Shown: positions 4,981 to 50,225, counted from the first letter of the stretch. The stretch is 64,000 nucleotides of DNA from an uncultured cyanobacterium (GCA_963710605.1 CAVQBA010000004.1:64001-128000); one strand, 5' to 3'. Notes: generated by a model not told the origin, from the letters alone. Made by a program: numbers and translations.

Positions 4981-5346
4981 ATGAAAAAGTTAATGACTAA
5001 ACATTTTTCAAAATGGCTGTTAAAACAAAAAATCTCTTATGATGAACTTAAAAAGAACTTAAGTGAGCTTAAACAAGGTAATTTTGAAGCTAATTTAGGA
5101 GGATATTTATACAAAAAAAGAATTCGATTTAAAAATCGGGGTAAAAGAGGTAGTGGCAGAATAATTATTTGTTATGAAAAAGAAAATCGAGCAATATATA
5201 TTTATGGTTTTGCTAAGAACGAAAAATCAAATCTTTCTAAAAAAGAATTAACTGCTTTTAAAGAATTAGCTAAAATTTTACTTAATCTTTCGGAAGCAGA
5301 ATTAGAAATAGCTATCAAAAATAAAGATTTTATTGAATTAAAATAA
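4981..5346 (+). CDS. RelE/ParE (HigB-like) toxin
   Basis: 121 aa; ANLGGYLYKKRI...GKRGSGRIII...YGFAKNEKSNL. Confidence 0.88.
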   Translation: MKKLMTKHFSKWLLKQKISYDELKKNLSELKQGNFEANLGGYLYKKRIRFKNRGKRGSGRIIICYEKENRAIYIYGFAKNEKSNLSKKELTAFKELAKILLNLSEAELEIAIKNKDFIELK

Positions 5347-5651
5347 TGAGAAAATCGATCGCAGAATCTATAACATCTACAGTTAGTGACTTACATAAAA
5401 GTGGACTAGTAGATGAAATTACTATGAAAAATATCCACAATCTTTGTCTTCCTGAAATTAAGGAGTATTCAGCCAAAGAAATTGTTGATATTAGAGAAAA
5501 ATATCGTTTAAGTCAAGCCGCTCTTGCAAGTATTTTTAATCTTAATGTCTCAACAGTACAAAAATGGGAACAAGGAAGTAAAAAACCGAGTAATGCTTCA
5601 CAAAAACTATTAGATATTATCGATCGTAAAGGTTTAGATGTTTTTATTTAA
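5346..5651 (+). CDS. XRE/HTH antitoxin (HigA-like)
   Basis: 101 aa; IREKYRLSQAALA..FNLNVSTVQKWEQGSKKPS; start overlaps toxin stop. Confidence 0.9.
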   Translation: MRKSIAESITSTVSDLHKSGLVDEITMKNIHNLCLPEIKEYSAKEIVDIREKYRLSQAALASIFNLNVSTVQKWEQGSKKPSNASQKLLDIIDRKGLDVFI

Positions 5652-25882: not shown

Positions 25883-26011
25883 ACAAAAAAATTGAGAATA
25901 TAATTACCATAATAAAGTGCTTCAGACGTATTTATGCTACGTCTGTACACCAGATTTTAATTATAAGTAATTTATTTAATTAAATAAAATTTTTGTCCGT
26001 CTAACTTTTTT

Positions 26012-26558
26012 TTAAACAGCAATCGATTTAGATAAATATCCCATTTTTTCTAAACCAGCAAATACTTTATTGACACTCTCGTCTAACTCTTCTAAATCAG
26101 TACGACATTCAATCTCTGGGTTTGTAGGTGGCTCATAAGGATCGCTTATACCTGTAAACATTTTGATTTCACCCGATTCGAGCTTTTTTGTATAAGCCTT
26201 TTACGTCTCTATCTTCACAAACAGATAAAGGTGCATTAACAAAAACTTCCACAAAATCACCAATTTTTTCTTTTAACTCTTCTCTAATAGCACGATAAGG
26301 AGAAATAGCGGAGACAAGTACGATTACTCCGTTACGAGTTAACAATTGAGAAACAAAACCAATACGACGAACATTAGTATCTCTATCTTCTTTGCTAAAA
26401 CCCAAACCTTTGGTTAAATTAGTCCGTACGATGTCTCCATCAAGTACTTCTAGTTTGTAACCTTCTTCTCTTAATTTAGCTTCTACTTTTTCGGTGATTG
26501 TACTTTTACCTGCACCGCTTAATCCGGTAAACCATAGTGTTACGCCTTTTTGTTCCAT
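26012..26558 (-). CDS. cysC: Adenylyl-sulfate kinase (frameshift near 26180)
   Basis: [29 protein letters not shown]-terminus [26 protein letters not shown] continues in another frame to 26012. Confidence 0.95.
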
Positions 26559-26768
26559 GATTTTCTCTAATTATTTTTACTAAAATTTAATCTGTCCTCA
26601 AGTATTGTACTAGTAACAATTGACAATTGACAATTGATACAGTTGATAGGGATTAGAAATTAGGTGTATTTGTGTTAAAGATTAGGGGAATGAAACTCTC
26701 AAAGTACTAATTCTCAACGACGCAGGCTACCACCGTAATTCTCAATTCTTATCTTATCTGTTCATTGT

Positions 26769-27695
26769 TTAAGATTTGATTGATGATAGATTACCAGCTA
26801 ATATTTTCAAATAGTCGTGTAATCGATCGATTGTAGCTTCTTTATCATCTTGGCAATGTTCACATATTTGATTAAGATTATCTAAAGACTGAAATAATGT
26901 CTGTGCTTGATCATTAATTTCTTCACTTTTATCTTCTAATATTGGGGTGATAGATTCTAAGGAGTCAAATAATTCTTGATATTGTTCTTGTAACTCACTA
27001 GAGCTACTATCAAATAAAAGTGCGATCGCTTCTGTTATGTTTGTGATGATATCTTGACTTCGATCGCCTAAATTTTGGATTTCGGGTTTAATTTCAGCAA
27101 ATTGACTTAAAAAATCTTCACTTTGTTCGCTGATAAAACTTTTGACTTCCTCATCATAAAATTCATCAAGATTATCTTTTTCTTCAGTTAAAACTTCTTG
27201 ATAATTTTGCAATCCTCTGAGCATGACGTTATTAATAAAGTCACCTGTATTTTCTAAATTTTGTTCTAATTGCGGTTCGATTTCGTTAACTTTTTCGTTA
27301 AAAGAAGTGACAATTGTTTCTAACTCTTCTAACTCATCATTAATATCTTGTTTGCTATCTTGCATTTTACCCACAGCATCAACCATATCTTGTTTGATTT
27401 CGATCGTTGATTGTTCGTTTTGCTCGATAAAACCATCAATTTTAGTTTCTAGATTTTCTAATTGCTCTAATCGTGATTGAGTATGATTGGTAAATTGTGT
27501 TTCTAAACGATCGATTTGTCTTAATAATGATTGTGCCGAATCCATTAAACTCGTCCATTGCGCGTCCATTACCGAATCACTTTGAGTTAGTAATTCTTCC
27601 AAATCTTCAATGTTATCATTAGTGGCTTTTTTTTCGGCTTCAAAACTTAACAAATTTTCGTAAGCTGAGGCGACTATATCAATAAAAATAGGCAT
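26769..27695 (-). CDS. Acidic helical/coiled-coil protein D' (putative paralog of 31606)
   Basis: 308 aa, E/Q/D/L-rich; MDAQWTSLMDSAQSLLRQI aligns with FDNNWDELSTRADGLLERI. Confidence 0.8.
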   Translation of the reverse strand: MPIFIDIVASAYENLLSFEAEKKATNDNIEDLEELLTQSDSVMDAQWTSLMDSAQSLLRQIDRLETQFTNHTQSRLEQLENLETKIDGFIEQNEQSTIEIKQDMVDAVGKMQDSKQDINDELEELETIVTSFNEKVNEIEPQLEQNLENTGDFINNVMLRGLQNYQEVLTEEKDNLDEFYDEEVKSFISEQSEDFLSQFAEIKPEIQNLGDRSQDIITNITEAIALLFDSSSSELQEQYQELFDSLESITPILEDKSEEINDQAQTLFQSLDNLNQICEHCQDDKEATIDRLHDYLKILAGNLSSIKS

Positions 27696-27816
27696 TTTTT
27701 AAATTTTTTAAGATAATTTTGGTGAAAGGGCAAAGGTAAATTAAAAGTTAAGAGGCAAAAGGCAAGAGGCAAGAGATAGTTGATAATTTTTCTTTTTTCA
27801 TTCTCAATTCTTAAAC

Positions 27817-28749
27817 CTACTCTTCATTGATTTGTTTTAAGGTTTCAACCATGTCATCACAAGTTGTTTGTAAATTTTCAGTGTGAGTGATTATATTTTC
27901 TGTACCTTCTGCTAACAACTCTTGTAACTCTTCAATACGATGTTGTTGCTCATCAATCGGTGTAAAAGAATCACTAACTAGGTTATTAAATTGGTTATTA
28001 GCATCTGTCAAAGATGACTGGTGTTGTTCTAAATTAGAACCATGATGATCACTAAATTGCTCAACTTGTGCAATAATTTGTTCAGAATTAAGCTTAATAT
28101 TTTCTGTTAATCTAGTTTCAAGTTCAGATAACTCTTGCTCGAAAACGGCTTCTATTTCATCGTTAATGTTTTCTTGGCTTGATTCTAATTCCTCTTCTAC
28201 TAAACTAATTTGCTCTTGTACCAAATCTTGGAAAGAATTAATTTTTTGTCCTAAAATATTGATTTCTTGTTCGGTAGAATCCCAAGCGATATCGATCGTG
28301 TTATTATGAGTTTCTAAATTTGACCATAACTGATTAAAAGTACCCACTCCTTGAGCCAAAATTTGCAAATGATTATCACCCATCGTCTCTAACTGTTGTT
28401 CAAATTGCTCAAAATAATCATTAATCGCCTCCATCGGCTCGGTTAACTCCTCTCTCTGCTCAAGCATACTTCGGTTTAGCTGTCGTATTTTTGCCCCCAC
28501 TCTTACCATCTGTGTTTGTAGAGAAGATTGCTCTGTAGCAACAAGGTTAGGAAAACTTTGTAGTTTAGATTGTACTTCTTGTAATACTTCGATCGTATCA
28601 GCTTGTTTAGTATTATTTTCGGTAATAATTTCAGCTAGGTTTTCACGAACATCATTAAGTTTTTCTCTCATCTGACTTGACTCTTCGGCTAGACGAGATT
28701 TCACCTCAGAAATATATTTTAAGTTAAAGATTAAATCTTCGTAATTCAT
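27817..28749 (-). CDS. Acidic helical/coiled-coil protein C' (putative paralog of 32651)
   Basis: 310 aa; KQADTIEVLQEVQSKL aligns with KQAQVTETLGEVQGAL; same length. Confidence 0.8.
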   Translation of the reverse strand: MNYEDLIFNLKYISEVKSRLAEESSQMREKLNDVRENLAEIITENNTKQADTIEVLQEVQSKLQSFPNLVATEQSSLQTQMVRVGAKIRQLNRSMLEQREELTEPMEAINDYFEQFEQQLETMGDNHLQILAQGVGTFNQLWSNLETHNNTIDIAWDSTEQEINILGQKINSFQDLVQEQISLVEEELESSQENINDEIEAVFEQELSELETRLTENIKLNSEQIIAQVEQFSDHHGSNLEQHQSSLTDANNQFNNLVSDSFTPIDEQQHRIEELQELLAEGTENIITHTENLQTTCDDMVETLKQINEE

Positions 28750-28770
28750 GTTTTTAGTCCTCTAATTTGG

Positions 28771-30486
28771 TTAAATAGCATCAAAACTTTGTAATGTTAA
28801 AGCTGATTTTTCTAGTGCTTCATTGGTGTAATTAAGAGCTTTTTTGGTTAATTGAAGTTGTTCATCTGTATGCTCAGAAGAGTCTTCTGTTGATTTGCTA
28901 TAGTTATTAATACTTTGAATTAAAGCAGTCAGGTTATCGTTTATCGGTTCAAATTCGTCAAGATTATCAAGCATTTTTGCTAAAACAGTTTCGATATTTT
29001 CTAAACCAGAGGTATGAATTTCATTAACGAAATTTTCGACTGTTTCCAAACTATTTTCTTGTAAATTTTGTAACGCATCAGTCAAATTATCACGAACACG
29101 TTTTAAGTTTTCGCTTGCCTTTACTTCTTGCTTCTGAGTAATATCTGTTTGCCATTTATCTAAAAATTGACCTAACTGATTATCACCATCGTCTAATGAT
29201 TTAATTAAAGAAGTGACATTATTTTCGTTAGTTAGAATTGATGATTCTAGTTGCTCATTCATCGCCACTAACGATTGACGAAAGGGAGTAAATGAGTCTT
29301 CCATATTTTCAGCAACAGTAGCTAAATCTTGCGGCACAGAAACATCACTATCATCATTACTTGAATTATCACTTAATACTCTGCCTTCTAAAATACTAGT
29401 AATCAAATTCTCAACTTTAGCTAATCTGTCGGTTAGGTTTTGTTTGTCACTCGCTAATTGTTCACTGGTATTATTTTGAGTATCCAGACTTTCTTGATTG
29501 ACGGTATCTAAATCAGTCATTAAGCTGGCTAAAAATTCACCAAAATTATCAAATTCTTCCGTATTTTGGTTTTGACTCGAATCTAATTGCTCTTCATTTT
29601 CAGCTAATTCAGCTTCAAGCGTTTCGAGAAAATCATTTAATTGTTGATTAGATTGTTCAACTTCAGTAATTTCTTCTTCTGCTTGTTCGTTGGTATCATC
29701 AAATAAACCATTCATTTCTTCTAAACCAGTTTCCAAGCCACCTAGTTGTGATTCAATATCATCAACTTGCTCGGAGGTTTCTTCTGCACCACCGCTACTA
29801 CCACTACCACCGCCACTACCACCGCCTAGCCCACCGCCACTACCGCTACCACCGCCAGTTTCTGATGCGTCAGATTTAACAGAGGGTTTACCAGAGTCGC
29901 TAGTGCTTACACCACCGTTTTGACTACTTGTACCTGTTTCACCGCTATTTTTACCACCATCAGCAGATTTATTCTCAGGAGAATCATTCGATTTTTTATC
30001 GGCTGTTTGTCGATCGCTTCTACCAGAAACAGAGTTATCATCTTTATTATTACCTGCCGAATTTTTGTCTGAAGATGATTTATTGTTAGAATCTCTATCA
30101 GCTTTGGTACGATCGTTATCATTACTATCTGTTTGACTAGTTTTGTCTCCTGTAGCTGATTGTTTGTTGCCTAAATCATTTAATTTATTTTGGGCTTGTT
30201 GTATTTCTTTTTGATTAGGTAATTTGCCTTCGGCGACATCGGTTGCTACTTGCCCTAAATATTTACCAATATCTAAAGCTTGTGCTTGCTCATCACCGCC
30301 TAAGTCTTTAGCTAAAGCGAGTATATCTTGACTGTTTTGTTGTAATTCGGCACTAATATTTTTAACTTCGGTTGAATTAGCTTGATTACCATCTCCTTTC
30401 AAACCGAATCCGACTAGGCTTCCTAATACTCCTAAACCACCTAAACTAGAAGCGACTAATTTCTTTGCTCTTTCTGTAATTTCCAT
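28771..30486 (-). CDS. Acidic helical protein B' with N-terminal hydrophobic segment and Ser/Gly/Asp-rich linker (putative paralog of 33639)
   Basis: 571 aa; LVASSLGGLGVLGSLVGFGL; GGGSGSGGGLGGGSGGGSGSSGG; C-terminal ~335 aa resembles 33639. Confidence 0.8.
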   Translation of the reverse strand: MEITERAKKLVASSLGGLGVLGSLVGFGLKGDGNQANSTEVKNISAELQQNSQDILALAKDLGGDEQAQALDIGKYLGQVATDVAEGKLPNQKEIQQAQNKLNDLGNKQSATGDKTSQTDSNDNDRTKADRDSNNKSSSDKNSAGNNKDDNSVSGRSDRQTADKKSNDSPENKSADGGKNSGETGTSSQNGGVSTSDSGKPSVKSDASETGGGSGSGGGLGGGSGGGSGSSGGAEETSEQVDDIESQLGGLETGLEEMNGLFDDTNEQAEEEITEVEQSNQQLNDFLETLEAELAENEEQLDSSQNQNTEEFDNFGEFLASLMTDLDTVNQESLDTQNNTSEQLASDKQNLTDRLAKVENLITSILEGRVLSDNSSNDDSDVSVPQDLATVAENMEDSFTPFRQSLVAMNEQLESSILTNENNVTSLIKSLDDGDNQLGQFLDKWQTDITQKQEVKASENLKRVRDNLTDALQNLQENSLETVENFVNEIHTSGLENIETVLAKMLDNLDEFEPINDNLTALIQSINNYSKSTEDSSEHTDEQLQLTKKALNYTNEALEKSALTLQSFDAI

Positions 30487-30645
30487 GTTTAATAATACTT
30501 CGGCTTTACTTTAACTGACGCGGAAACTGAGCGGAGTCGAAGTTTAGCACGAGTTGCTCAATATAAATAAATAATTAATAAATAGACTTTACTATCTGGT
30601 TTTTAGGTTTAACTGTTTGTTAAAATGCACAAAAATTAAACAATT

Positions 30646-31521
30646 TTAAAAAGAAACATTTAATCTATTTTTATATGATTCTAAATTTTCTAATAAGTGT
30701 TCTAAACTATCTATATTTTCGTTGACATTTTCGCTTAAATCATTACTTTTTTTCTCAATTGTTTCTTTGAGCTGTTCAACTTGCTCTTCAATTCTTTGGC
30801 TATCACTAACTAATAGCTCTTTTAATTCACTTTGTAAACGTTGTTGAACAAATTCTTCTATTTGCTCTTCTTGTTCGTTTAAATCGTCTTGAAAGTTCTC
30901 TATTTGTTCATTAGCGATCGTGATTAAACTAGGTAAATAATCTTTAAACTCTTCAAGTTTGGCGAGTAAATTATCTTTAAAATCAGTTAGTTTTTCAGCT
31001 AGATTTTCTTTTTGTTGATTAAAACTCTCACGCCAATTGTCATTAGTAGTTCTTAAATTATCTAATTGATCTAAAAGTTCTTCATTGTATTCAATTAAGT
31101 CTGTTTCTAGATTTTCGATTCTATTTGACCATTGATTGATATTATCTTTTAAACTTTGAGTTGAAAGTTCAATTTGTCGATCGATCGAATTAATTGTAGC
31201 TTGAAAATCTTGAGTTTGTTCTTGAGTATTAGCCATTAATTGTTCGGCTGTTTCTTCAACTAAATTAGCTTGATTTTCTAATTGATTTAGTTTTTCAGAG
31301 GCTAATTCAATTTGTTCGTCTAATTGCGTTTCGATATTTAACATTACCTGTGCTAAATTACTAGTTAAATTAGTAGTTTGTTCAGTGACGTTGTTAATTG
31401 TTTGTTGTAAGTTTTCGATCGTGCGGTTAATATTACTAAAAGAGCCTGAAGAAACTTGAACTTTAGAGTTCATTAACTCCATTCTTTCAGTAGCAATCTC
31501 GATTAATTCGTTAATTTTCAT
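30646..31521 (-). CDS. Acidic helical/coiled-coil protein A' (putative paralog of 34673)
   Basis: 291 aa; INELIEIATER aligns with INALIEQADER. Confidence 0.8.
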   Translation of the reverse strand: MKINELIEIATERMELMNSKVQVSSGSFSNINRTIENLQQTINNVTEQTTNLTSNLAQVMLNIETQLDEQIELASEKLNQLENQANLVEETAEQLMANTQEQTQDFQATINSIDRQIELSTQSLKDNINQWSNRIENLETDLIEYNEELLDQLDNLRTTNDNWRESFNQQKENLAEKLTDFKDNLLAKLEEFKDYLPSLITIANEQIENFQDDLNEQEEQIEEFVQQRLQSELKELLVSDSQRIEEQVEQLKETIEKKSNDLSENVNENIDSLEHLLENLESYKNRLNVSF

Positions 31522-31605
31522 AAGCAGAAATGGAAAATGAATGTAGAATGAATAACAATTAATAATTAATAATATGTAACTATTAACTATTAACTATTAA
31601 CTATA

Positions 31606-32511
31606 TTAGAAACGCTCAAGTAACTCTTTAACCTCCTCAAAAACGCCTAACGCAGTATTCAAACCGATATTCGTCGTATCCATCGCTGTCATTACAGTAT
31701 CTTTAGTGGTATCGACTGTGCCACCTAAATCAGAAACTAATTCACTCAAAGTAGTTAAAGCTGATTCTATATCTTCGGCAGTGGACATTAATTCTTCAAA
31801 TTGATCTTCTACACTACCTGTAAAGTCTTCTAATGCTGAGTTAGCCGATTCTTGAGTGGAGTTAGCTTGCTCTTGTGCTTGAGTACTTACATTCTCAGTG
31901 AATTCTTCAATTTGAGAGCTTAACTGAGATACCATTTCATTTACACGAGACACGGCTTCATCAGCTATTTGTTGTTCTGCTTCAACGGTTTGAGCTTCTA
32001 TTTCCTCTTGATTATTATTCATCGCTTCGGTGAAGTCGTTTTCTAAATCAGATTGTGATTCACTAATCGTTTCAGCTAAATCCGATTGTACTTCTTCGAC
32101 TTTCGTTTGCAGACTTTCGACGGTTTCACGTACAGTATTAAATACCTCTTGTAATTCTGATGATTTACTGTCGCTATCTTCACCTAAGGCGGTTAATTCA
32201 CCAACGGTTTCTTCTACTGTTTGACTGGTTTGCGATTGTATTGATTGAGTATTTGATTGTAAGTTATCTAAACCTTGACGTAAATTTTCACTTTCGCTAT
32301 CTAACTCATCTCTAGCACCAGAAATACGTTCTAATAAACCATCTGCCCTAGTTGATAACTCATCCCAGTTGTTGTCGAATTGCTCACTAACGGCCGCTAA
32401 TTCTTCTCTTGCTTGATTAAGATTTTCTTCAGCTTCATCAGCACGATTAAGCAATTCTTGAAGTTGGGTTACTGTTTCGGCAATACTTTGTTCTAAATCT
32501 ACACTAGCCAT
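31606..32511 (-). CDS. Acidic helical/coiled-coil protein D
   Basis: 301 aa; heptad-like, no Pro; AAGAGG RBS-like sequence upstream. Confidence 0.85.
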   Translation of the reverse strand: MASVDLEQSIAETVTQLQELLNRADEAEENLNQAREELAAVSEQFDNNWDELSTRADGLLERISGARDELDSESENLRQGLDNLQSNTQSIQSQTSQTVEETVGELTALGEDSDSKSSELQEVFNTVRETVESLQTKVEEVQSDLAETISESQSDLENDFTEAMNNNQEEIEAQTVEAEQQIADEAVSRVNEMVSQLSSQIEEFTENVSTQAQEQANSTQESANSALEDFTGSVEDQFEELMSTAEDIESALTTLSELVSDLGGTVDTTKDTVMTAMDTTNIGLNTALGVFEEVKELLERF

Positions 32512-32650
32512 GATTTTTTCCTCTTAAATAATAAATAATTGTCTTGAAAAATTGAATGTTACGTTTTAGCTTTTAGTTGTGGGGTGTTAGGTTTTAGTTG
32601 TTAATAAATTTAATTCTTAACTTTTAACTCTTAACTCTTAACTGTTAAGG

Positions 32651-33583
32651 CTATCCGAAATCAACACCAAACTTATCGGCGGCACTTCTAACTGAATCAA
32701 CACCGTTTTCGATCGGCTCTTTAAAACCATCTAATTGATCAATCAAATCACCAATTACTTCTCTGACACCTGCTGATTCTTCCTCCGCATCGGTTACTTT
32801 TTCCACCATGTCATCGATCGATGATGTTACTTGCCCAATAGCGGAGGCGATTAATTCTTGTAACTCAGTTTCGATTTCGGTTTGAGCTTTATCCATCAAA
32901 CCATCAACACCTCCTGATAATGCTTCAGAAGTTGACCCTAAAACATTACTAAAGCTTTCACCAACAGAGGCAAATTCTTCTGCCATGGTTTGAATATTGG
33001 TGGTGACAGTTTCTTGATTTTGTTCTACTTGCTCAGTAAAACTTTGGGCTTCTTCTTCCATTCTGCTACTGACATCTTCTAATTTGTCTCGCATTGTCTC
33101 CATCACTGCTAAAGCACTTTCCATGGCTGAAGCTAATTCATCTTGATTACCTTGAATTGCTTCTTGAGCGGTATTCAATATTGCCATCGCTTCTTCTTCC
33201 GCCATTTTGGTTGTGGAATTATCTTCCTCGATTTGAGTTTGATATTGACTAATTTTTTCGCTAGTAGCCGCTACTTGCTCCATTATTTGCTCTTTAGATT
33301 CATTTAAGAAACTTTCTAATTCATTAGCTGTTTCTTCAAAGCTAGTCACGTTTTCTTGGGTTTGAGTTTGGTTTTCGGCTATTTCTTCTTGCATTTCGCC
33401 TAATGCACCTTGAACTTCTCCTAGGGTTTCGGTTACTTGTGCTTGTTTTTCTTGAACATTACTAACTAATTCATCTGCTTCTGCTTGTACTTCTTCGGCT
33501 AATGTCATTAGGTTTTCTAAACGTTCGGGAAATTCGATGATTAGTTGAGATAATAGATTGAGGCTATCGCTTAATTCACTCAT
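32651..33583 (-). CDS. Acidic helical/coiled-coil protein C
   Basis: 310 aa; E/Q/A/M-rich heptads. Confidence 0.85.
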   Translation of the reverse strand: MSELSDSLNLLSQLIIEFPERLENLMTLAEEVQAEADELVSNVQEKQAQVTETLGEVQGALGEMQEEIAENQTQTQENVTSFEETANELESFLNESKEQIMEQVAATSEKISQYQTQIEEDNSTTKMAEEEAMAILNTAQEAIQGNQDELASAMESALAVMETMRDKLEDVSSRMEEEAQSFTEQVEQNQETVTTNIQTMAEEFASVGESFSNVLGSTSEALSGGVDGLMDKAQTEIETELQELIASAIGQVTSSIDDMVEKVTDAEEESAGVREVIGDLIDQLDGFKEPIENGVDSVRSAADKFGVDFG

Positions 33584-33638
33584 GATTATTAATTGGGTTA
33601 AAGATTGTGGTTATTGAATTGAGATTATGTAAATTAAT

Positions 33639-34631
33639 TTAGAAATCAAAGGCATCAAGTACAGCATTGATTGCACCAATTGCGACTTTAGCGGCGGCGA
33701 TGTAAGGTAGGATAGGACTAATACCACCTGTAACTGATGTACCTACACTTGTCATGGTGATTTGTTCGACCATTTCGCTGGCTAAGGATGCTACAGTGTT
33801 TTCGATCGCATCTTCAAAGGTTTCTTTTAATTCCTCTTTGGTAGTTTCTCCAGCGTATTCAGCGGTGTTGGTTAGTATTTCAGTAAATCTTTCTTTCAAT
33901 TCGTCGGCTAAATCTAAGTTTTCGTCGTTGAATGAAGTTAAAAATTCATCAAAATTACCAGTTAATTCTTCTAACTGCCCTGTAATTTCGGTAAGTTGCT
34001 CTCCTATTAGGTTGCCGCTAAAATCACTGAGTAATGTATCAAGGCTATCTTTGACTGTTTCACCAACATTGGTGGCGGTTTGTTCAAATAATTCTTCGGT
34101 TTCTTCTTGGGCAGAAGTTAAGTTGTCTTCCAAACCAGAGGTGTTTTCAGTGAAGGTGTTGAAAAATTCTTCGGCAGTATCACCATTTTGACTTAAGGAA
34201 TCTTCTAAGGAGGTTATTGTTTCCATCAATTCGCCAAAAGTTTGAGCTAATGCTTCGACGACACCATCTAATTCACTTTGCTGATTATCAACTTCGGTTT
34301 CGACTTCACCTTTAGTTTGCTCTACTGATTGATTTATCTCTTGTAATCTTTCTTGTAAATCATTAAGTGCTTCTTGAAAAGCTGTCATTTCACTAATCAT
34401 TGCTTCAGAATCTTGAGCAAATTCTTCTTGAGAACTTTCAAATTCTGTACTAGCATTGTCTAAAGTGTTGTTGACTTCTTCTTGACAGTTATCTAAAGAT
34501 TCGTTGGTTTCTCCTAACTGTTGAGTGAAATCTTCCATTTGATTATTGGCGATATCTAAGGCTTTGAGTAACTCTTCTAGTTTCTCTACCGACTCGTCAA
34601 TATTTTGCTCCATTGCTTGGGCTTCAGCCAT
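33639..34631 (-). CDS. Acidic helical/coiled-coil protein B with hydrophobic C-terminus
   Basis: 330 aa; ends VGTSVTGGISPILPYIAAAKVAIGAINAVLDAFDF; AAGGAG RBS upstream. Confidence 0.85.
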   Translation of the reverse strand: MAEAQAMEQNIDESVEKLEELLKALDIANNQMEDFTQQLGETNESLDNCQEEVNNTLDNASTEFESSQEEFAQDSEAMISEMTAFQEALNDLQERLQEINQSVEQTKGEVETEVDNQQSELDGVVEALAQTFGELMETITSLEDSLSQNGDTAEEFFNTFTENTSGLEDNLTSAQEETEELFEQTATNVGETVKDSLDTLLSDFSGNLIGEQLTEITGQLEELTGNFDEFLTSFNDENLDLADELKERFTEILTNTAEYAGETTKEELKETFEDAIENTVASLASEMVEQITMTSVGTSVTGGISPILPYIAAAKVAIGAINAVLDAFDF

Positions 34632-34672
34632 GATTTTTGCTCCTTAAATAAATAAAATTACTAATTAATTTG

Positions 34673-35569
34673 TTATCCTAAGACTGTTTCGATCGCATCT
34701 AAGACAGGTTTAATTTGTTCAATCAAATCAGTCACTTCATCAACTTGATCGACAATGTCACCGATACTACCGTCTAATAAGTCTCCTACTTCTTCTCCTG
34801 CATCTTTCAAAAAGCCCATGCCATCGCTTAAAGCACCTGAAGATTCACTTAATTCACCTGTCAATTCCTCGATGAATTTAGCTGTTAAAGCACTCATTAC
34901 ATCACCTGCTTGAGACTCTAGATTACTGACTAAATTTTCTGCCCCTTCTTGACTAGCTGATGCAACGTCTTCAAATTCTGTTTGTAAGGTTTCTAATTTG
35001 TCATTTAACTCTTGAGCTAAAGTGCTAAACTGTTCCATCATGTTTTCAGTTTGGCTTTGGAAACTTTCGGTTGTACTACCAACTTGTTCTTTTAACTGCT
35101 CGATATTACTGTTAGCAGTTTCTTGATATGTTGCCATTTGCTCTTGCATCTGGTCGATATTTTGCCCATAATCATCAAAAGCTGATTGACTATCTTCTGT
35201 TTGGGTTTCAATTTCTTCGACAATTGCTTCTTTGCGTTCAATAAATTCTTGTAAACGTCCTTGAAAATCTTCCATCGATTGGTTTAGTTGTTCGCCTACT
35301 TCACTAATCTGTGATTCAAATTCACCCATCACCCCACGAGTATTTTCTAACTCTGTTTCGAGGTTACTTTCTGCTTCTTCTAACTCGGTTAGCATTGCTT
35401 CCCATTTAGCTTGAGATTCTTCTCCTGCTGTTTTGAGGTTTTCGGCAATTTCGGTTGCTTTCTCGACGATTTGCTCTACTTGCTCGAAGGCTTTTTCTCC
35501 TTCTAATATTAAACTTTGAGCCCTTTCGTCTGCTTGTTCAATCAAGGCATTAATTTCATTGGTAGCCAT
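34673..35569 (-). CDS. Acidic helical/coiled-coil protein A (first gene of the putative operon)
   Basis: 298 aa; heptad-like; AAGGA RBS-like sequence upstream. Confidence 0.85.
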   Translation of the reverse strand: MATNEINALIEQADERAQSLILEGEKAFEQVEQIVEKATEIAENLKTAGEESQAKWEAMLTELEEAESNLETELENTRGVMGEFESQISEVGEQLNQSMEDFQGRLQEFIERKEAIVEEIETQTEDSQSAFDDYGQNIDQMQEQMATYQETANSNIEQLKEQVGSTTESFQSQTENMMEQFSTLAQELNDKLETLQTEFEDVASASQEGAENLVSNLESQAGDVMSALTAKFIEELTGELSESSGALSDGMGFLKDAGEEVGDLLDGSIGDIVDQVDEVTDLIEQIKPVLDAIETVLG

Positions 35570-36154
35570 AATCGGTTATTCCTTTTTTAGCATTCTGTTA
35601 GTATATAGGTCTAATATTTCGGGGTATGCAATTTTTTTAATTAAAAATTTTTTCTAAGCTAATTTAAATAGATATTTTTACTTTTGTAGCAAAAACGATC
35701 GATTGAATACCCTTGATTTAGTTAGTTGTTTCGATTCCTAAATAGTTAATACTATAATCTACGAATTTGGTGATAAAAGTATTAGTTGTCGATTGTTTTA
35801 CTGATTGTGGATATATTTTAATTCGATCGTTTGAAAATGATCCTAAATCGAAAAACATTGTAATAATTCATAATAAATAACACCCTGTCACCGAGCCACT
35901 ATCAATGATTAATTATTAATTGTCAATTATCAGTTATTAATTATTAACTATCTTTGATATTTTGGTTAATGACTGTTATCGTAACGATACAATTGAAGCT
36001 ACTGTACCTGAGATTAACAGATAAGATATCTATATCTAAGACAAAAATTATTTTCTTTACTATCTTAAATTCGCTATTTTGAATGAAGGTAATCAATTAA
36101 TAAGCAATTTTTAATTGTTTTTGCATATTGCCAAAAAGTATAACCAATAAATAA

Positions 36155-37615
36155 ATGGATATGGTAATACAAAATATCATTGACAAATTTTCAACTTATA
36201 TTCAAGTTAAACAACAAGGTAACAACTATTTTGTTCCTATTTATTTAACTGATGTTAAGTTAAAAAAAACTATATCTTCTCACTTACAATCATTTACTAA
36301 TGATAAAGAAGAAGACTGTATTCGTCATTTTTTACGATCGTTAAAAAAATCTAACTATCAAGATGTAACTACTAAACAATTGATTGTTTGTTATTTACAA
36401 AAAGCTTGTTGGTATGCCTCGCAAAAAGTAAGCCGAGAGTTGAGTCAGACTAGTAATCTAAATTTGCATTATTCTCATGAAGATTGTTTTATGATTGCTT
36501 GTGAGTTGGCATTACAACCGAGAAAATTACTTGATAATTTTAATTTTGAGACTAAAGTATCGGTACAAACTTATGTACAAACTGTATTAAGCAGAATGAT
36601 TAAAAATCAAATTGTGACACAGTTAAAAGCTAAATCTTTAAAATTTTCTGATCAAGGTTTACTAAAAAATACTAGTAAAAGTCAATTAGATGAATCACTT
36701 TCTACTTATGGTATAAATCAAACTAAAATGACTGAGTATGGTATATTTTTTCAGTCTTTTAAAGACTTATATTATACTTTATTAGATTTGAGTTTAGACT
36801 CAAGTAATAATAGTGATAAAAATTTAATTAGTACTTTAAATCAAGCACAAACTAAAGCTCTTAACGATCGTATTCAACAACAATTTAAACGTTTAGGTTT
36901 ACCTCAAAAAAATCTATCAACTGAGGAAATTCAACAAAATCTTAGTTTTTGTGTACAAGTAATTCGTAACTATCAAAATCGTACCTTTGTGGATTTAGAT
37001 AATGTTCATCAAGATTTAACTACAACTGCTAATTCTCTTGATTTATTATCCCAAAGTGAAGAATATAAACAGTTTGAACAATTACGTAATATAGTAGTCA
37101 AAGAATTTGAACCTTTAGATTTAGCTCATAAAGTTATTTTACTTTGGTTAGGATTAGAGATAAATCAAGCTGATTTTAGAGAACTTTTGCAATGTGAACA
37201 ACAATTTCAAGTTTCTCGTCAATTAACGAAATATCTTAAAAATATTCTCAAAGCAATCGTTCAAAAAGTCTTAACAAATTCTAGTCAATTAACTAACAAA
37301 GAGTTAAATAAACTTTGTCAAGAAAATACTAAAGTTATTAAAGATTATTTACAATTATATAGTCAAGATTATTTTATTAATTTGTTGATGAATATTGTTA
37401 ATAGTAATGATGATTTAATCAAAAAATTAATCTTAGAAATTAGTAATAATTATTTTATTATCATAGTTGATTTACTAAAAAATAAAATTGATGAAAAACT
37501 AGAAATAAAAATACAACAATTTGCTTGTGCTACACAAAGACTTAACTATTTTGTATTTCAAACTCTAAGTAACAACAAAGCATTATTGATTAGCCAACAA
37601 AAAATAGAGGAGTAA
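36155..37615 (+). CDS. Sigma-70-like transcription factor of the DUF1822-associated cyanobacterial type
   Basis: 486 aa; YLQKACWYAS, DCFMIA, SDQGLLK, C-terminal HTH-like LGLEINQADFRELL..QQFQVSRQL; 4 bp upstream of DUF1822 gene. Confidence 0.65.
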   Translation: MDMVIQNIIDKFSTYIQVKQQGNNYFVPIYLTDVKLKKTISSHLQSFTNDKEEDCIRHFLRSLKKSNYQDVTTKQLIVCYLQKACWYASQKVSRELSQTSNLNLHYSHEDCFMIACELALQPRKLLDNFNFETKVSVQTYVQTVLSRMIKNQIVTQLKAKSLKFSDQGLLKNTSKSQLDESLSTYGINQTKMTEYGIFFQSFKDLYYTLLDLSLDSSNNSDKNLISTLNQAQTKALNDRIQQQFKRLGLPQKNLSTEEIQQNLSFCVQVIRNYQNRTFVDLDNVHQDLTTTANSLDLLSQSEEYKQFEQLRNIVVKEFEPLDLAHKVILLWLGLEINQADFRELLQCEQQFQVSRQLTKYLKNILKAIVQKVLTNSSQLTNKELNKLCQENTKVIKDYLQLYSQDYFINLLMNIVNSNDDLIKKLILEISNNYFIIIVDLLKNKIDEKLEIKIQQFACATQRLNYFVFQTLSNNKALLISQQKIEE

Positions 37616-37619
37616 AAAA

Positions 37620-38870
37620 ATGAGTATTACGAGCAAAGATTTAGCTATTATATATCCAGAGCAACTATTAATCCCCTTTAGCCAAGACGATAAACAACAG
37701 GCATGGCAAAAGGCAACACAAAATAATCAAGACAACAAAGCAGTTATCTGGAATAGTTTTCTTAATCATCTTTGTTTGCAATATATACCTTATTTAAAAT
37801 CCGATATTACTGATAATGTAACGATACAAACTTGGCAATCAGAAGCAAAATTAAACCAAATTTGGCAATTAGTAAATGGTAATGCGATCGATATTGTATC
37901 AGAAAACTCAACCACAACTAGATTAGTTTTAATCCCCACTAATGAAGAGACAGACGAATTAAGAGTGCCTAGAGAATGGTTAGATTTACCAAATTGGGTT
38001 GGTAATTATTATATAGCGGTGCAAATCAACGAACAAGAAAATTACCTGACAATTCAAGGATATACCACCTACGAAGAGTTAACTGAATATGGAAATTACG
38101 ATGCGATTGATGAAACTTATAGTCTTCCTCTCACTAATTTAACTGAAGATTTGACATCAATGTATATCAGTTTAGAATTATACCCTTATCATCGCCCTCA
38201 ACTAAAAAACGAATATATTCTAGATAGTGATAAGCTACCAGAAATTGTTAGCCAATTGAAATCAACCACAATGACATTACCTCGTTTAGAAATTCCTTTT
38301 ACTGATTGGGGGGCAATCATTGACAATCCAGAAACTAGATATTTTTTCAGTGAAGATAAATATAACCAAAATAATAAAGAAGAGTCAATCGTTAATAATG
38401 ATAAAGTAATTAAAGACAATCAAGGTGTAAAATTATTACAATGGCTAGAAGACGCAGTAACATCAGGTTGGCAAACTTTAGATAGTTTAATTAATCAAGA
38501 GCAACTAAACTTAGCCTATAACTATCGTCGTAGTAATAGTGATAATAGCGTTGAAGCAGTAAAACTAGTTGAGATACCAACAAATACAGGTATGCAAACT
38601 CTAGCTTTAGTTATTCATTTAGAAAAAACTCCAGAAGGCAAATTTACCCTCAAAATACAACTCAATTCTACTGCCGAAAAATCGACTCTTCCCAGTCAAC
38701 TCAAACTACAAATGGTATCTTATTCACAAAAAATTATTCAAGAAGTAGAAGCTAGAGATAATGATAATTCAATTCAATTAAAACAATTTACCACCCGTAG
38801 CGGTCAAAAATTTTTGATTAACATTGTTCAAGAAAAATTTACTTGGGTAGAACAATTTTCTGTAAGTTAA
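37620..38870 (+). CDS. DUF1822 family protein
   Basis: 416 aa; WQLVNGNAI, RLVLIP, ELRVPREWLDLPNWVGNYYIAVQ, LLQWLE..GWQTLD, EARDNDNSIQLKQF. Confidence 0.88.
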   Translation: MSITSKDLAIIYPEQLLIPFSQDDKQQAWQKATQNNQDNKAVIWNSFLNHLCLQYIPYLKSDITDNVTIQTWQSEAKLNQIWQLVNGNAIDIVSENSTTTRLVLIPTNEETDELRVPREWLDLPNWVGNYYIAVQINEQENYLTIQGYTTYEELTEYGNYDAIDETYSLPLTNLTEDLTSMYISLELYPYHRPQLKNEYILDSDKLPEIVSQLKSTTMTLPRLEIPFTDWGAIIDNPETRYFFSEDKYNQNNKEESIVNNDKVIKDNQGVKLLQWLEDAVTSGWQTLDSLINQEQLNLAYNYRRSNSDNSVEAVKLVEIPTNTGMQTLALVIHLEKTPEGKFTLKIQLNSTAEKSTLPSQLKLQMVSYSQKIIQEVEARDNDNSIQLKQFTTRSGQKFLINIVQEKFTWVEQFSVS

Positions 38871-39268
38871 AATTCAATTTTTATTAGTACCAAAAACGGT
38901 ATTAATAACTAGTTTTGTTATGTATTTATCAAATTCTAAAATACAATATTTAGCGATAACTATAGTTATTTCGATTAAGATTTAGACAGTATTAATAACA
39001 CTTAAAATTATAAGCCCTCACCCCGCTTTGAAATAAATTACAAGGCTAACAGCAAGACGTTTAATAAATCAAACTCAAATTCAATATAAAAAATATCTCT
39101 CAAGTTATTTCAAGTAACTATAAATACTCTAAATATTACTATATTAACTACTAAATTAATTAATATGATTTAATATTATCAAGTAAATTTGCCACTGTAG
39201 TTATCAAGAAATCAAATAACAACTACTTAATTATCAATTGTCAATTATCAATTATCAATTACAAAACT

Positions 39269-41098
39269 ATGTCTGGCTTAGTTGAAATTAATTTAGGAAA
39301 AGGTAATTTAGAAGAAGGCTTTGATTTAGTCACGGTAAAAATAGATAAAAAGACTCAATGTACAAGTAGTCTTCCTCCTTCACCAGAGTTACAACAAATA
39401 TATTATCGTTGGTTATCCTTTTACCAATCACTATATCAGTCTCGTCGTTTTGCTATCAGACAAAGACAACCAGTAGCGGTAGTAAATAATTTTGAGGATG
39501 ATGATGATGATGACTTTGAAATTGATGAAGATGATATTACTCATGTTTGTGAAGAAGATTTTACTGACATCTGTCTTCAATTAGAAAATAGCCTTAATCA
39601 ATGGTTAGGAAATAACAGTTTTGTCAATACTGAAAATAAACTTAGACAACAATTACCACCAGAAAAAGAACTTATTTTTGTTTTAGAATCAGAAGATTAT
39701 TTAATCAAAAAAATACCTTGGCATTTGTGGCAATTTTTCGATGATTATCCCTTAACAGAAATTAGTTTAAGTAATCTTTATTTTAAGCCTAGGGCGACTA
39801 TTTTTAATAAAAGTAAGAAAGTTAGAGTTTTAGCTATTTTAGGTGATTCTACAGGAATTGATGTCCAAAGCGATCGTCAAATTTTAACTAATTTAGAAAA
39901 TACAGAAACGTTATTTTTAGTAGAACCAACTATTGATGAATTATACACTCATTTGTTAGCTGAAAACGGTTGGGATATTTTGTTTTTTTCTGGGCATAGT
40001 GAAACTAATATAGCTGAAAACTATACAGGTTATATGTATTTAAATCAACAAGAAAAACTAACTATGGAGGAGTTAAAAAATGGTATCAAAAAAGCAACTG
40101 ACAATGGTTTACAATTAGCTATTTTGAATTCTTGTGATGGTTTGGGTTTGGGTAAACAATTAGCTGATTTATCTATTCCTCAAACTATTTTAATGCGAGA
40201 ATCGATCGCTGATCAAGTAGCACAACAATTTTTACAATCTTTTTTGGACATTTTTTCCCATGGACAAAGTTTATATTTATCAGTTAAAGAAGCTAGAGAA
40301 AAACTAAAAACGATCGAAAATCAATTCCCAGCGGCGAGTTGGCTTCCTGTTATTTGGCAAAATCCTGCTGTTATACCCCCTGTGTGGCAAGATTTATGTT
40401 TTACCCCAACAACTCTCAAACGTAAAATAAATCAAATTTTATCTGCTAGTGTCGCAGTCTTTAGTTTAATCATCGGTGTCTTTAGCTTAACTAATCAAGC
40501 TGAAGCCAGAGAATTTGAGCAAAATAATTCTTTAATCGATTTAGGTAATTATTTACAACAACAAACTTTAAATTTACAGCAGTTTAATAATTATTTAAAA
40601 GCAGATTTTAACGAGGAATATCTGGATAATCAATTAATTGAATCAATTGATAGTATTAGCAGTCAATTACAAGATAATAGTTTACCTTCAATATCAGATT
40701 TGAATTTTTTAAATGATAGTTTTAATCAACAACTACAAGTAGATAATACTCTTAGTTTGACTGAAAATGTCAACGATGGGCAAGTTAATAATAAGGTAAC
40801 TAATCCGCAATCAACTCAGAATTTAGAAAACCTTAATCAGATTAATTCATCATCAGAAACTCAGCAATTGTTAAATTCAGTTGAGCAGATAAGTGATAGT
40901 TTAGAAGAATTTTCGGCGGATATAGATAACTTAAATATAACGATCGAGCAAATCAATGAGAATAACAATCTCTGGTTAGAAGATATTAACAAAATCGATC
41001 GAGATTTACAAGCATATAAAGAAGATTTGGCAGTTAAAATGAATGATAACGAAAAAATGCTCACTGAATATTCTGAGCTATTAAAAAGAATACTATAA
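39269..41098 (+). CDS. Membrane-anchored CHAT (caspase-like) protease with C-terminal helical domain
   Basis: 609 aa; LPPSPEL, IPWHLW, FFSGHS (His), ILNSCDGLG (Cys), SWLPVIWQNP; hydrophobic segment ILSASVAVFSLIIGVFSL. Confidence 0.88.
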   Translation: MSGLVEINLGKGNLEEGFDLVTVKIDKKTQCTSSLPPSPELQQIYYRWLSFYQSLYQSRRFAIRQRQPVAVVNNFEDDDDDDFEIDEDDITHVCEEDFTDICLQLENSLNQWLGNNSFVNTENKLRQQLPPEKELIFVLESEDYLIKKIPWHLWQFFDDYPLTEISLSNLYFKPRATIFNKSKKVRVLAILGDSTGIDVQSDRQILTNLENTETLFLVEPTIDELYTHLLAENGWDILFFSGHSETNIAENYTGYMYLNQQEKLTMEELKNGIKKATDNGLQLAILNSCDGLGLGKQLADLSIPQTILMRESIADQVAQQFLQSFLDIFSHGQSLYLSVKEAREKLKTIENQFPAASWLPVIWQNPAVIPPVWQDLCFTPTTLKRKINQILSASVAVFSLIIGVFSLTNQAEAREFEQNNSLIDLGNYLQQQTLNLQQFNNYLKADFNEEYLDNQLIESIDSISSQLQDNSLPSISDLNFLNDSFNQQLQVDNTLSLTENVNDGQVNNKVTNPQSTQNLENLNQINSSSETQQLLNSVEQISDSLEEFSADIDNLNITIEQINENNNLWLEDINKIDRDLQAYKEDLAVKMNDNEKMLTEYSELLKRIL

Positions 41099-50143: not shown

Positions 50144-50225
50144 GATTTTTACTTTTTTTAAGTACTTTTTAATCAAATAAATTTAAGAAGATAAAACTAC
50201 TAAAAATAATTGAGACGGATAAATG

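Follow-up and report, generated by a model that had tools for sequence, protein, structure and literature searches.

What is the function of eight consecutive cyanobacterial genes which look like the same four genes written twice? The genes lie at 26769-35569, all on the minus strand, of a 64,000-nucleotide stretch of DNA (the window) from an uncultured cyanobacterium (GCA_963710605.1 CAVQBA010000004.1:64001-128000), and their order is A-B-C-D / A'-B'-C'-D'.

The eight genes

Coordinates, strand and lengths of the eight genes are as given in the original prediction; everything in this section except the spacer is on the minus strand. A (34673-35569) codes for an all-helical, hyper-acidic protein of 298 aa with a net charge of -59. 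Its N-terminal motif IN.LIEQ..ER and its C-terminal motif IKPVLD..(L)G are both conserved, and the A orthologues in the window's family show 54-67% identity. B (33639-34631; 330 aa, net charge -69) is helical, and its first ~200 residues are paralogous to D. The only hydrophobic stretch of the first set is at the C-terminus of B (33642-33755, ~residues 293-330, motif GTSVT...SPILP...AAK); in 23 B sequences G297, T301 and A314 are invariant and P306 and P309 nearly so, and the segment is a putative membrane or partner-binding anchor. C (32651-33583; 310 aa, net charge -58, helical) carries the motifs EKQ.Q near residue 46 and AA..(F/V)G(V/I).F(G) at the C-terminus and is the most conserved of A, B, C and D; C-type representative clusters account for 81 among 89 listed matches of 270-365 aa. 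D (31606-32511; 301 aa, net charge -59) is helical with an invariant W49.

In the second set A' (30646-31521; 291 aa) is a diverged, N/I/L-rich paralogue of A with a net charge of -38, C' (27817-28749; 310 aa) is a diverged paralogue of C, colinear with it over the full length without gaps, and D' (26769-27695; 308 aa) is a diverged paralogue of D which is absent from two related genomes (G004 and G009). B' (28771-30486; 571 aa) has three parts: an N-terminal hydrophobic glycine-zipper segment (30397-30462, residues 9-30, KKLVASSLGGLGVLGSLVGFGL), kept in 6/6 B' orthologues; a low-complexity, disordered linker rich in S, G, N and D (29785-30396, ~residues 31-234), which includes a Gly/Ser repeat coded by a short tandem DNA repeat; and a B-like helical domain (28774-29784, residues 235-571), which aligns with B 5-209. 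An AT-rich spacer of 585 bp (35570-36154) separates A from a divergent sigma-like gene and is presumed to be the promoter region for both sides; an Rfam search of the spacer gave no match.

The proteins are mostly of ~300 aa, with net charges from -38 to -69 and the periodicity of helical bundles: hydrophobic residues recur every 3.54-3.6 residues in a heptad/hendecad pattern (lags 7, 11, 18 and 25), with almost no Gly/Pro breaks along ~250 residues. No hydrophobic window is found in A, C, D, A', C' or D', nor any TM segment in A, C or D. None of the proteins passes a cut-off in Pfam or NCBIfam; weak matches are spread over many unrelated helical families, and the fold cannot be told from the sequences by themselves. 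Public annotation pipelines call relatives 'chromosome segregation ATPase'.

One module in two copies

The original prediction was that a four-gene unit is repeated in one order, X pairing with X' for each gene, and both profile scores and a 92-row tree confirm it. Profiles were made from 4-6 orthologues per gene and compared profile to profile with hhalign, reversed targets serving as control. The scores were 71.5/78.1 for A-A', 78.6/71.4 for B-B' (B residues 5-209 against B' 235-469), 73.9/76.4 for C-C' over the full length and 67.6/65.0 for D-D', and all controls for these profiles (22-53) lie below this range (65-79). The predicted partner is the top match for B, A', B', C' and D'. For D the top match is B, by 3.5 units; B-D (69.5/71.1) is the sole competing pair. 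Single sequences compared by BLASTP with composition correction gave 40 bits for A-A' (colinear), 32 for C-C' and 26 for D-D' and no real match for B-B', while A-C (44 bits) and B-D (45 bits) equal or exceed the X-X' pairs.

In the maximum likelihood tree all four expected clades are recovered, with SH-aLRT values of 92 (A+A'), 86 (B+B'), 97 (C+C') and 92 (D+D'). The 8/8 labels are monophyletic, and the 7 changes needed, which is the minimum, were reached by 0/200 shuffles. Independent single-copy units of distant cyanobacteria match X most strongly for each of the four genes, with X' next. The motif matches on which the repeat was originally proposed fall at equivalent positions in all eight motif pairs, and the N-termini shared by B and D are colinear (B 6-206 against D 5-199). 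The similarity claimed for the DNA upstream of B and D comes down to a ribosome-binding stretch of 31 nt (27/31 identical, z 6.2 against shuffles) and nothing more. Broad profiles align A with C (123.5) and A with D (125.9), colinear over the full length, with reversed controls of 68-79.

Judged from these alignments, A, B, C and D are shown to be old paralogues of one ~300-residue, hyper-acidic protein predicted to be all-helical, and the eight genes are two paralogous copies of an ancient module ABCD; a duplication of all four genes together as one block is supported. It had been cautioned that coiled-coil low complexity could inflate the similarities, and composition alone does yield sizeable scores, but the X-X' scores stand above every control. 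That the X-X' likeness is nothing else than such an artefact, the eight genes being unordered members of a low-complexity family, is hardly credible: the pairwise BLAST scores are weak and partly ambiguous, and reversed controls of up to 53 and, for broad profiles, 79 show that composition matters, but the alignments are colinear across 200-300 residues with invariant residues included, and the controls, the tree with its four clades and the distant units all left the artefact unsupported when it was tested.

Distribution of the unit and its second set

C was found in 29/401 genomes of the order, and the order A-B-C-D is kept in 24/32 loci from several cyanobacterial families. Four distinct paralogues in constant order would fit non-redundant subunits of one assembly. 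The original prediction went further and spoke of an obligate hetero-tetramer with a major and a diverged minor set. The distribution speaks against the word obligate: most cyanobacteria with the unit have a single set, and among the sampled genomes the second one occurs only in the window's family, where 8/8 ABCD-bearing genomes have it. The dN/dS ratios are 0.12-0.20 for the second set against 0.08-0.09 for the first, values which indicate that both sets are functional. The second set is faster-evolving yet under purifying selection; it is old or fast-evolving. An anchoring or specialised role for it may be hinted at by B', which alone has an N-terminal glycine zipper and a long disordered linker.

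It should be noted that the unit is present in the desiccation-tolerant Chroococcidiopsis, and that cassettes have been inserted in it elsewhere, a PemK toxin-antitoxin pair in one genome (G426) and an aldehyde dehydrogenase in another (G010).

Neighbouring genes

The earlier reading of the sequence missed the toxin cassettes, the FHA membrane protein, the kinases and the ECF-sigma/DUF1822/CHAT neighbours. The last of these form a divergent trio on the plus strand of the window (36155-41098): an ECF-like sigma-70 family protein (36155-37615), which scores 31.6 bits with the sigma70-ECF superfamily model and so lies below the cut-off of 42.9, a DUF1822 protein (37620-38870, 197 bits) and a CHAT/caspase-like protein with one TM segment (39269-41098, CHAT 45.5 bits). 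With DUF1822, CHAT and the ECF-like sigma (below cut-off) in one neighbourhood, the trio matches the one described as an EACC2-caspase conflict system by Kaur et al., 2021 (PMC8195603), for which the section on these systems proposes that the transcriptional output is delivered by the sigma factor; that section does not mention ABCD proteins. An ECF-like sigma adjoins ABCD in 5/27 loci of three families, and the whole trio adjoins ABCD units in two families besides the window's. The link between trio and ABCD is one of adjacency only, in 5/27 loci.

A more regular partner is E, an FHA protein of ~720 aa for which two membrane helices are predicted. Full-length E occurs in 28/29 C-positive genomes against 11/372 C-negative ones, and in 16/27 loci it lies within the stretch examined around ABCD; a Ser/Thr kinase is near ABCD in 19/27 loci. 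In the window's genome, which is 85% complete, full-length E was not found. Outside the FHA domain the language-model features of E are nearest to IniA, dynamin and mitofusin clusters (0.85-0.90), and hhalign aligns it with cyanobacterial dynamin-like proteins at 91.7% probability over 33 columns only, in the segment after the G3 motif. E is like the bacterial dynamin-like proteins (BDLP, IniA, LeoA) in its size, its hydrophobic hairpin near the C-terminal third and its flanking coiled coils. It is unlike them in that the FHA domain is N-terminal to the short dynamin-like match and that the E alignment shows no P-loop; Pfam Dynamin_N gave no match to E at E-values up to 5.

The third kind of neighbour is found in 5/27 loci (G032, G319, G326, G588 and G679), where eight ORFs share the N-terminus MSLMARVDQAR..LQ; one further toxin ORF of this type is in a metagenome locus. 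In the five loci the layout is that of polymorphic toxins, a constant N-terminus, a variable toxin and an adjacent immunity gene. The C-termini differ (PT-HINT with Ntox24; Ntox44 in three; a weak Ntox5 with a glycine zipper), and a SUKH or an LRR gene follows downstream. Four of the toxin ORFs have a pre-toxin module, which elsewhere sits in large ORFs, with eCIS_core in 3/8. Together with the N-terminal helix the module was found only in 3 ABCD-positive genomes out of 401, few and related, and every time inside the ABCD locus; without the helix it gave 11 matches in 10 other genomes, in larger ORFs (nine of 570-1,926 aa), some with eCIS_core. The toxin helix best matches D residues 19-46 (27.3 against 18.1 for the reversed control), a weak match with probabilities of 54% and 21.5%. 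Most units are therefore without visible toxin cargo. There is no toxin ORF in the window locus, and the helix as query gave no match in the window's 85% complete genome. Taken together, E, the kinases and the toxin ORFs point to a conflict system.

Relation to known systems

The five loci with toxin ORFs resemble the polymorphic toxin systems of Zhang et al., 2012 (PMC3482391) in the constant N-terminus, the pre-toxin module (with HINT in one), the Ntox24/Ntox44 toxins and the SUKH/LRR genes. They differ in the N-terminal module, a ~30-residue helix which is not among the trafficking domains named in the relevant part of that paper (signal peptide, TPS, PAAR/VgrG, WXG/LXG/LDXD, PVC metallopeptidase, TcdB/TcaC, PrsW and MuF); nor are cyanobacteria among the lineages given there for Ntox24 or Ntox44. 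The window's own ABCD locus is unlike such systems, having no toxin.

Substrates of type VIIb secretion are WXG100 proteins, and LXG toxins that go with small helical partners, the Lap proteins. ABCD may work in a similar way, since it combines acidic helical bundles with an adjacent toxin of similar helical N-terminus, with an FHA membrane protein and kinases near; it is dissimilar in that the proteins are of ~300 aa, not ~100 aa, and the host is a diderm cyanobacterium. Membership was rejected: WXG100 (PF06013) scores at best 15-17 bits in the ABCD proteins against a cut-off of 27.3, 0/5 ABCD genomes searched throughout have a WXG100 match over the cut-off (the sole sub-threshold match being B itself, 21.1 bits), and an FtsK/EssC-type ATPase (PF01580) is present in 1/5, on a contig other than that of the ABCD locus, and was not found in the window's genome.

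The mycobacterial mce operons, in which six Mce paralogues build one hetero-hexameric needle and which are repeated as mce1-4, offer another parallel: subunits homologous to one another stand in a fixed order, and the whole block is repeated as a diverged copy. Weak MCE matches fall on the helical part (TIGR00996, E 1e-7 to 3e-5; 23-31 bits against a cut-off of 140.5). Unlike mce, ABCD has no MCE beta-barrel domain, N-terminal TM segment or YrbE permease genes. Zorya ZorA was also rejected; the matches (17-37 bits) are all on the tail of the models or chains, and A, C and D lack the TM segments of a MotA/ExbB-type domain.

Possible functions of ABCD

The reading we favour, and to which we give slightly less than an even chance, is that ABCD would act for a polymorphic-toxin system as its helical, hetero-oligomeric carrier or scaffold, working with E under kinase/FHA control. 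It supposes a hetero-oligomeric bundle of helices made up of A, B, C and D, which would be held at a membrane by the conserved C-terminal hydrophobic segment of B; in the second set this role would pass to the N-terminal glycine-zipper helix of B'. The assembly would cooperate with E, controlled through phospho-threonine, and serve as carrier or trafficking scaffold of the conflict system. In other genomes short toxins would plug into the module by their common N-terminal helix resembling the start of D, and in the window, where the copy has no toxin cargo, the adjoining ECF-sigma/DUF1822/caspase sensor may drive ABCD. Against a carrier speak the many units without visible cargo, the weakness of the match between toxin helix and D, and the window's genome, in which neither a helix-bearing toxin nor full-length E was found. 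Export from a diderm cell needs a route through the outer membrane, and no component of such a route was identified; acidic proteins like these, without signal peptide, could equally well be cytoplasmic scaffolds.

A rather unlikely alternative is a membrane-protective or remodelling scaffold of stress-induced amphipathic helices like those of PspA/IM30, apolipoprotein/LEA or phasins, which would coat or repair membranes with the dynamin-like E and a kinase or ECF sigma switch, the toxin cassettes being opportunistic insertions. The nearness of E to IniA, dynamin and mitofusin, the adjoining ECF-type sigma, the occurrence in Chroococcidiopsis and the entry of other mobile cassettes suit this idea, as do sub-threshold matches to Apolipoprotein, ApoLp-III, YtxH, the sll1863 stress family and PspA_IM30. 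All these family matches are, however, under curated cut-offs, and membership was rejected for Apolipoprotein (24-50 against 90 bits in Pfam), ApoLp-III (<=34.1 against 36.3) and PspA-IM30 (14.8 against 33.9). A dedicated toxin helix seen only in ABCD loci is hard to square with random insertion, four distinct paralogues strictly kept in one order are unusual for coat proteins, and net charges of -38 to -69 speak against direct binding to anionic membranes.

Quite improbable is a cytoskeletal or structural hetero-polymer, in which coiled-coil ABCD would co-polymerise into a filament or lattice and A'B'C'D' into a second filament type. The unbroken periodicity, the generic matches to SMC, Rad50, keratin and tape-measure coiled coils and the public 'chromosome segregation ATPase' label agree with it, but the sporadic distribution is not as expected of a core cytoskeleton, and the links to toxin/immunity cassettes, kinases, FHA proteins and a caspase-type sensor are traits of conflict systems.

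The tripartite toxins of the ClyA/Hbl/Nhe/Mak kind have paralogous subunits encoded side by side, and that ABCD is itself such a multi-component alpha-helical pore-forming weapon is less probable still: helical paralogues of 300-330 aa with weak mutual similarity in one operon, one conserved hydrophobic segment in B and weak matches to Bacillus_HBL (C) and MakE (B and A') recall them, but these matches are far under cut-off (16.6 against 29.1 and ~15 against 360 bits), A, C and D are without a mid-chain hydrophobic head (nor is there a hydrophobic window in A', C' or D'), so extreme a negative charge is not typical, immunity or export genes do not accompany the unit consistently, and some loci hold separate bona fide toxin cassettes. 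Membership was rejected.

We return to the toxin carrier. The ABCD module may belong to an undescribed toxin-handling system. A bolder version, possible and at present doubtful, is that ABCD and E form a previously undescribed cyanobacterial trafficking apparatus, a membrane-tethered, hetero-oligomeric bundle of the four paralogues whose cargo would mimic the first helix of D and which would be fired by Ser/Thr-kinase/FHA signalling or by the caspase-ECF-sigma sensor; A'B'C'D' would then be a second, specialised bundle of the window's family with its own N-terminal membrane anchor. If this were true, cyanobacteria would handle or export polymorphic toxins by a new route.

The eight proteins

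The eight ORFs lie on the minus strand of the window (26769-35569), separated by intergenic spacers of 21-159 bp, and code for a first set of proteins, A, B, C and D (298, 330, 310 and 301 aa), and a diverged second set, A', B', C' and D' (291, 571, 310 and 308 aa). In all eight E, Q, L, S and T are abundant, the net charge is -38 to -69, and a signal peptide was found in none of them. When averaged over the families, hydrophobicity repeats every 3.54-3.6 residues and its autocorrelation peaks at lags 7, 11, 18 and 25, and conserved Gly or Pro columns are nearly missing from the family alignments upstream of residue ~230, a pattern that marks long helical bundles or coiled coils. The eight proteins match no Pfam or NCBIfam model at its cut-off; their weak matches to unrelated helical families run into the dozens.

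Only two of the eight proteins have a hydrophobic window, B at its C-terminus and B' at residues 9-27. The former is a strongly conserved motif, GTSVT...SPILP...AAK...IN.VLD, found in 26 of 28 genuine B sequences and replaced by acidic residues in two related genomes (G032 and G319); a 29th row labelled B by the HMM, a 222-aa ORF of the related genome G018, is no real B and was excluded from this count. B' is without the motif; at its start is a conserved glycine-zipper helix, and ~200 residues of low complexity, rich in S, G, N and D, come next. It should be noted that in G018 unrelated sequence stands in place of the first ~100 residues of B (locus L022, 13071-14075), that A is on a separate 1.5-kb contig (L007), and that the gene for E, an FHA protein described below, is directly upstream of B.

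Rfam gave no match within 26000-36400 of the window, and scans for promoters and terminators found sites no more often than in shuffled sequence. In its intergenic spacers the cluster has heptanucleotide tandem repeats in 3-7 copies (AAGAGGC, TAACTAT, TTAACTC, TATTAAT and ACAATTG; window 27750-27775, 31577-31604, 32610-32648, 35900-35951 and 26616-26637), which recall cyanobacterial short tandem repeats.

Pairing of the two sets

The original prediction postulated one four-gene unit repeated in the same order, A-B-C-D / A'-B'-C'-D'. Comparison of single sequences by BLASTP is ambiguous: A-A', C-C' and D-D' score 40, 32 and 26 bits and B-B' gives no real match, while the cross-pairs A-C and B-D score 44 and 45 bits. 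Orthologues of all eight genes were therefore taken from seven genomes of the window's family and the family profiles compared with each other. The predicted pairs then score 71.5/78.1 (A-A'), 78.6/71.4 (B-B'), 73.9/76.4 (C-C') and 67.6/65.0 (D-D'), in alignments colinear across 200-300 columns, against at most 53 for reversed-target controls with the same profiles. Every pair of motifs quoted in the prediction was aligned at equivalent positions. The sole competing pair is B-D (69.5/71.1), which confirms the likeness of the N-termini of B and D that had also been pointed out. The alignment of C with C' (15 sequences) is almost without gaps and has invariant K46, Q47 and L61.

A tree with four clades, each joining a gene to its second-set partner, had been proposed as a check, and these clades were recovered in a maximum likelihood tree of 92 proteins (SH-aLRT 92 for A+A', 86 for B+B', 97 for C+C' and 92 for D+D'). 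Each of the eight labels is monophyletic in this tree, and none of 200 label shuffles was equally good. For each of the four genes, distant single-copy units match the first-set member best and its second-set partner second. Broad profiles gave 123.5 for A-C and 125.9 for A-D versus 68-79 for reversed controls, which indicates that the A, B, C and D families are mutually homologous along their full length. Four paralogous families, each paired with a second-set partner, imply a gene history of 1 to 4 to 8.

Distribution and gene order

Of 401 sampled genomes of the window's order, 29 have C-type genes; they span at least seven family codes (f1, f2, f14, f18, f24, f29 and f55) and include the named genus Chroococcidiopsis. 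Two further genomes of the window's class have C-type genes as well. When 1.84 billion representative proteins were searched with a profile, 251 matches reached E <= 1e-10. Among the 150 matches listed, 89 are 270-365 aa long, 81 of them C-type and 8 C'-type; the remaining listed matches, mostly giant coiled-coil proteins, we take as probable composition matches. A tblastn search with C gave no match on plasmids, the window's C found no related locus in viral contigs or in the genome-contig collection, and a homologous-protein search with B returned nothing.

The order A-B-C-D is kept in 24 of 32 loci, or 25 if G189, left out since its B is just below threshold, is included. It is not kept at contig ends and in one lineage (G326, G588, G679 and metagenome relatives), where one strand carries E-B-C-D and the opposite one A-A-toxin-immunity-D-toxin. 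G588, G679 and the metagenome relatives also have an ORF of 86-102 aa between B and C that is absent from the window and has a hydrophobic helix at its N-terminus (L101 10353-10661, L106 10223-10483, L136 3670-3930, L137 6780-7040). Foreign insertions that do not disrupt the unit are an aldehyde dehydrogenase gene between A' and B' (G010, L018 9860-11248) and, between C and D, a PemK/MazF toxin gene preceded by a small ORF (G426, L100 8887-9509). Chroococcidiopsis-type genomes have a gene for a "HetZ-related protein 2" (NCBIfam, 569 bits) directly 3' of D (L092 11820-12995; also L103 and L107) and, in the same loci, an AAA ATPase gene and a DUF1257 gene upstream of A.

The second set

Strong C' matches (E <= 1e-101) were found in all eight ABCD-bearing genomes of the window's family and in none of ~300 other sampled genomes, where the C' profile retrieves only ordinary C. 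One C'-type database protein, named "hypothetical protein", comes from Aphanothece hegewaldii. The order A'-B'-C'-D' is retained, D' being absent from two genomes. Identity to the window proteins is 23-41% for the second set versus 51-73% for the first. A comparison of two closely related genomes gives dN/dS values of 0.08-0.09 (A, C and D) and 0.12-0.20 (A'-D'); the value for B is distorted by a replaced N-terminus in one of them. Both sets are thus under purifying selection and functional, the second being less constrained.

In single-gene and concatenated trees the second-set genes branch outside all ordinary copies. A recent duplication inside the window's family is rejected by the AU test (p 0.0085 against grouping with the family's own ABCD), with the caveat that branches are long, composition is skewed and the group was picked post hoc from the tree.

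Neighbouring genes

The usual genomic companion of ABCD is E, a protein of ~720 aa in which an N-terminal helix and an FHA domain are followed by a conserved middle part, by two hydrophobic helices predicted to span the membrane, and by a C-terminal coiled coil. Its gene is within 16 of the 27 ABCD stretches examined. Full-length E occurs in 39 of the 401 genomes, including 28 of the 29 C-positive ones, and in 11 genomes without C at the threshold used; this co-occurrence is an association and not a statistic, the related genomes not being independent. The single C-positive exception is the window's own genome (85% complete), in which only an FHA domain and no full-length E was found. The window's genus is represented by one other genome, G001, which has full-length E (contig 162, 1294-3438) with one in-frame TGA; no ABCD was found in this genome, which is 67% complete, and the window's genome, also incomplete, has ABCD without E. 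The non-FHA part of E matches cyanobacterial dynamin-like proteins over 33 profile columns (91.7% probability), and its nearest language-model clusters are dynamin, IniA and mitofusin. We regard the apparent resemblance to dynamins as a lead only.

Ser/Thr kinases, often with WD40 repeats, are found in 19 of the 27 stretches; other frequent neighbours are FHA-WD40 proteins, a GluR0-type ligand-gated channel and trypsin-TPR proteins. Divergent from A in the window are genes for an ECF-like sigma factor (below cut-off), a DUF1822 protein and a CHAT protein, and a sigma-like gene of this type adjoins ABCD in 5 of the 27 stretches, from three families. Such a trio is described as an EACC2-caspase system, with the sigma factor proposed to deliver the transcriptional output (PMC8195603). 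An ABCD-like domain in the C-terminal region of the CHAT protein was rejected, as a search with this region gave no matches.

The window also holds other genes of conflict type: a KAP/NPHP3-like P-loop NTPase adjoining a TPR protein (48572-51527, minus strand), a GmrSD-type restriction enzyme (59942-61561, plus strand) and a RelE-like toxin with an MqsA-like antitoxin (4981-5651, plus strand). Directly downstream of D' an APS (adenylylsulfate) kinase gene (26169-26558, minus strand) stops after 129 aa, and its conserved C-terminal part goes on in another frame within the ~250 nt below, by a frameshift or an assembly error. A DEAD-box helicase (62118-63682, minus strand) is in two adjacent ORFs, one with the DEAD domain and one with Helicase_C and the DeaD dimerisation domain, possibly through a frameshift.

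Toxin genes inside the unit

Eight short ORFs in five genomes, all inside the ABCD unit, and one more in a metagenome contig share the N-terminus MSLMARVDQAR..LQ..A.E.L.EA. In their C-terminal part one has PT-HINT and Ntox24, three have Ntox44, one has a weak Ntox5 match and a glycine zipper, and three have no Pfam match. The next genes code for a SUKH protein, an LRR protein or small unknown proteins. In four of the toxin ORFs a second conserved module follows the helix. The same module is found in 10 other genomes (11 matches), mostly in large ORFs (nine of 570-1,926 aa), and among eight of these scanned three have eCIS_core and one Ntox1; the module is thus a general pre-toxin module. The N-terminal helix is private to the cassettes: its combination with the module is found in only three ABCD-positive genomes of the 401, always inside the ABCD locus. 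The best match of the helix is to residues 19-46 of D, and it is weak (score 27.3 versus 18.1 reversed; two runs gave 54% and 21.5% probability). That the helix is a copy of the N-terminus of A was rejected, since hhalign to A, B or C never exceeded the reversed control.

A model for ABCD

The model which we put forward, tentatively and at somewhat less than an even chance, hypothesizes that ABCD is a membrane-tethered helical bundle. A-D would assemble into a hetero-oligomer and B (or B') would be its membrane tether; E and the kinases would control the bundle through phospho-threonine recognition, and toxins would join it by imitating the first helix of D. In the window the adjacent ECF-type sigma factor may turn on the operon. 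The export route of a polymorphic toxin system can be read from its N-terminal module (PMC3482391), and on that logic ABCD, perhaps with E, would be the route or carrier of the helix-bearing toxins. ABCD would then be an undescribed carrier module of a polymorphic-toxin or conflict system. A bolder reading, in which ABCD and E would make up a new trafficking apparatus, we consider less likely.

The main rival explanation takes ABCD as a membrane-protective or membrane-remodelling scaffold. The toxin insertions, present in some genomes, would then be incidental; we find this rather unlikely. Searches with the A, B, C and D profiles against PDB sequences gave nothing but generic helical proteins (apolipoproteins, designed bundles, spike HR1, the ZorA tail), with one ESAT-6 and one LXG chain at E-values of 4e-4 to 4e-3, and were rejected as evidence of fold. 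Type VII secretion was rejected, as WXG100 was above cut-off in none of five genomes and an FtsK-type ATPase in only one of the five. All matches in PADLOC and PHROGs were to coiled coils of a generic kind (ZorA tail, JetC, LmuB, tape-measure proteins), and membership of a PADLOC defence family and, by PHROGs, a phage origin were rejected.

Cyanobacterial polymorphic toxins are many, and to our knowledge little is known, beyond contractile injection systems, on how they are moved. The literature searched, including the available parts of two comparative-genomics papers, has no description of the ABCD proteins, and their relatives go by public names such as "hypothetical protein" or, spuriously, "chromosome segregation ATPase". 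The analysis defines a five-gene core of four ordered helical paralogues and an FHA membrane protein, of which the four helical proteins are without a family name despite spanning several cyanobacterial families, and which in some genomes has toxin-immunity cassettes that appear to bear a dedicated targeting helix. Vague "hypothetical coiled-coil proteins" thereby become a testable system, and the duplication from 1 to 4 to 8 genes is a natural experiment in the diversification of hetero-oligomeric helical assemblies, as we propose these to be.
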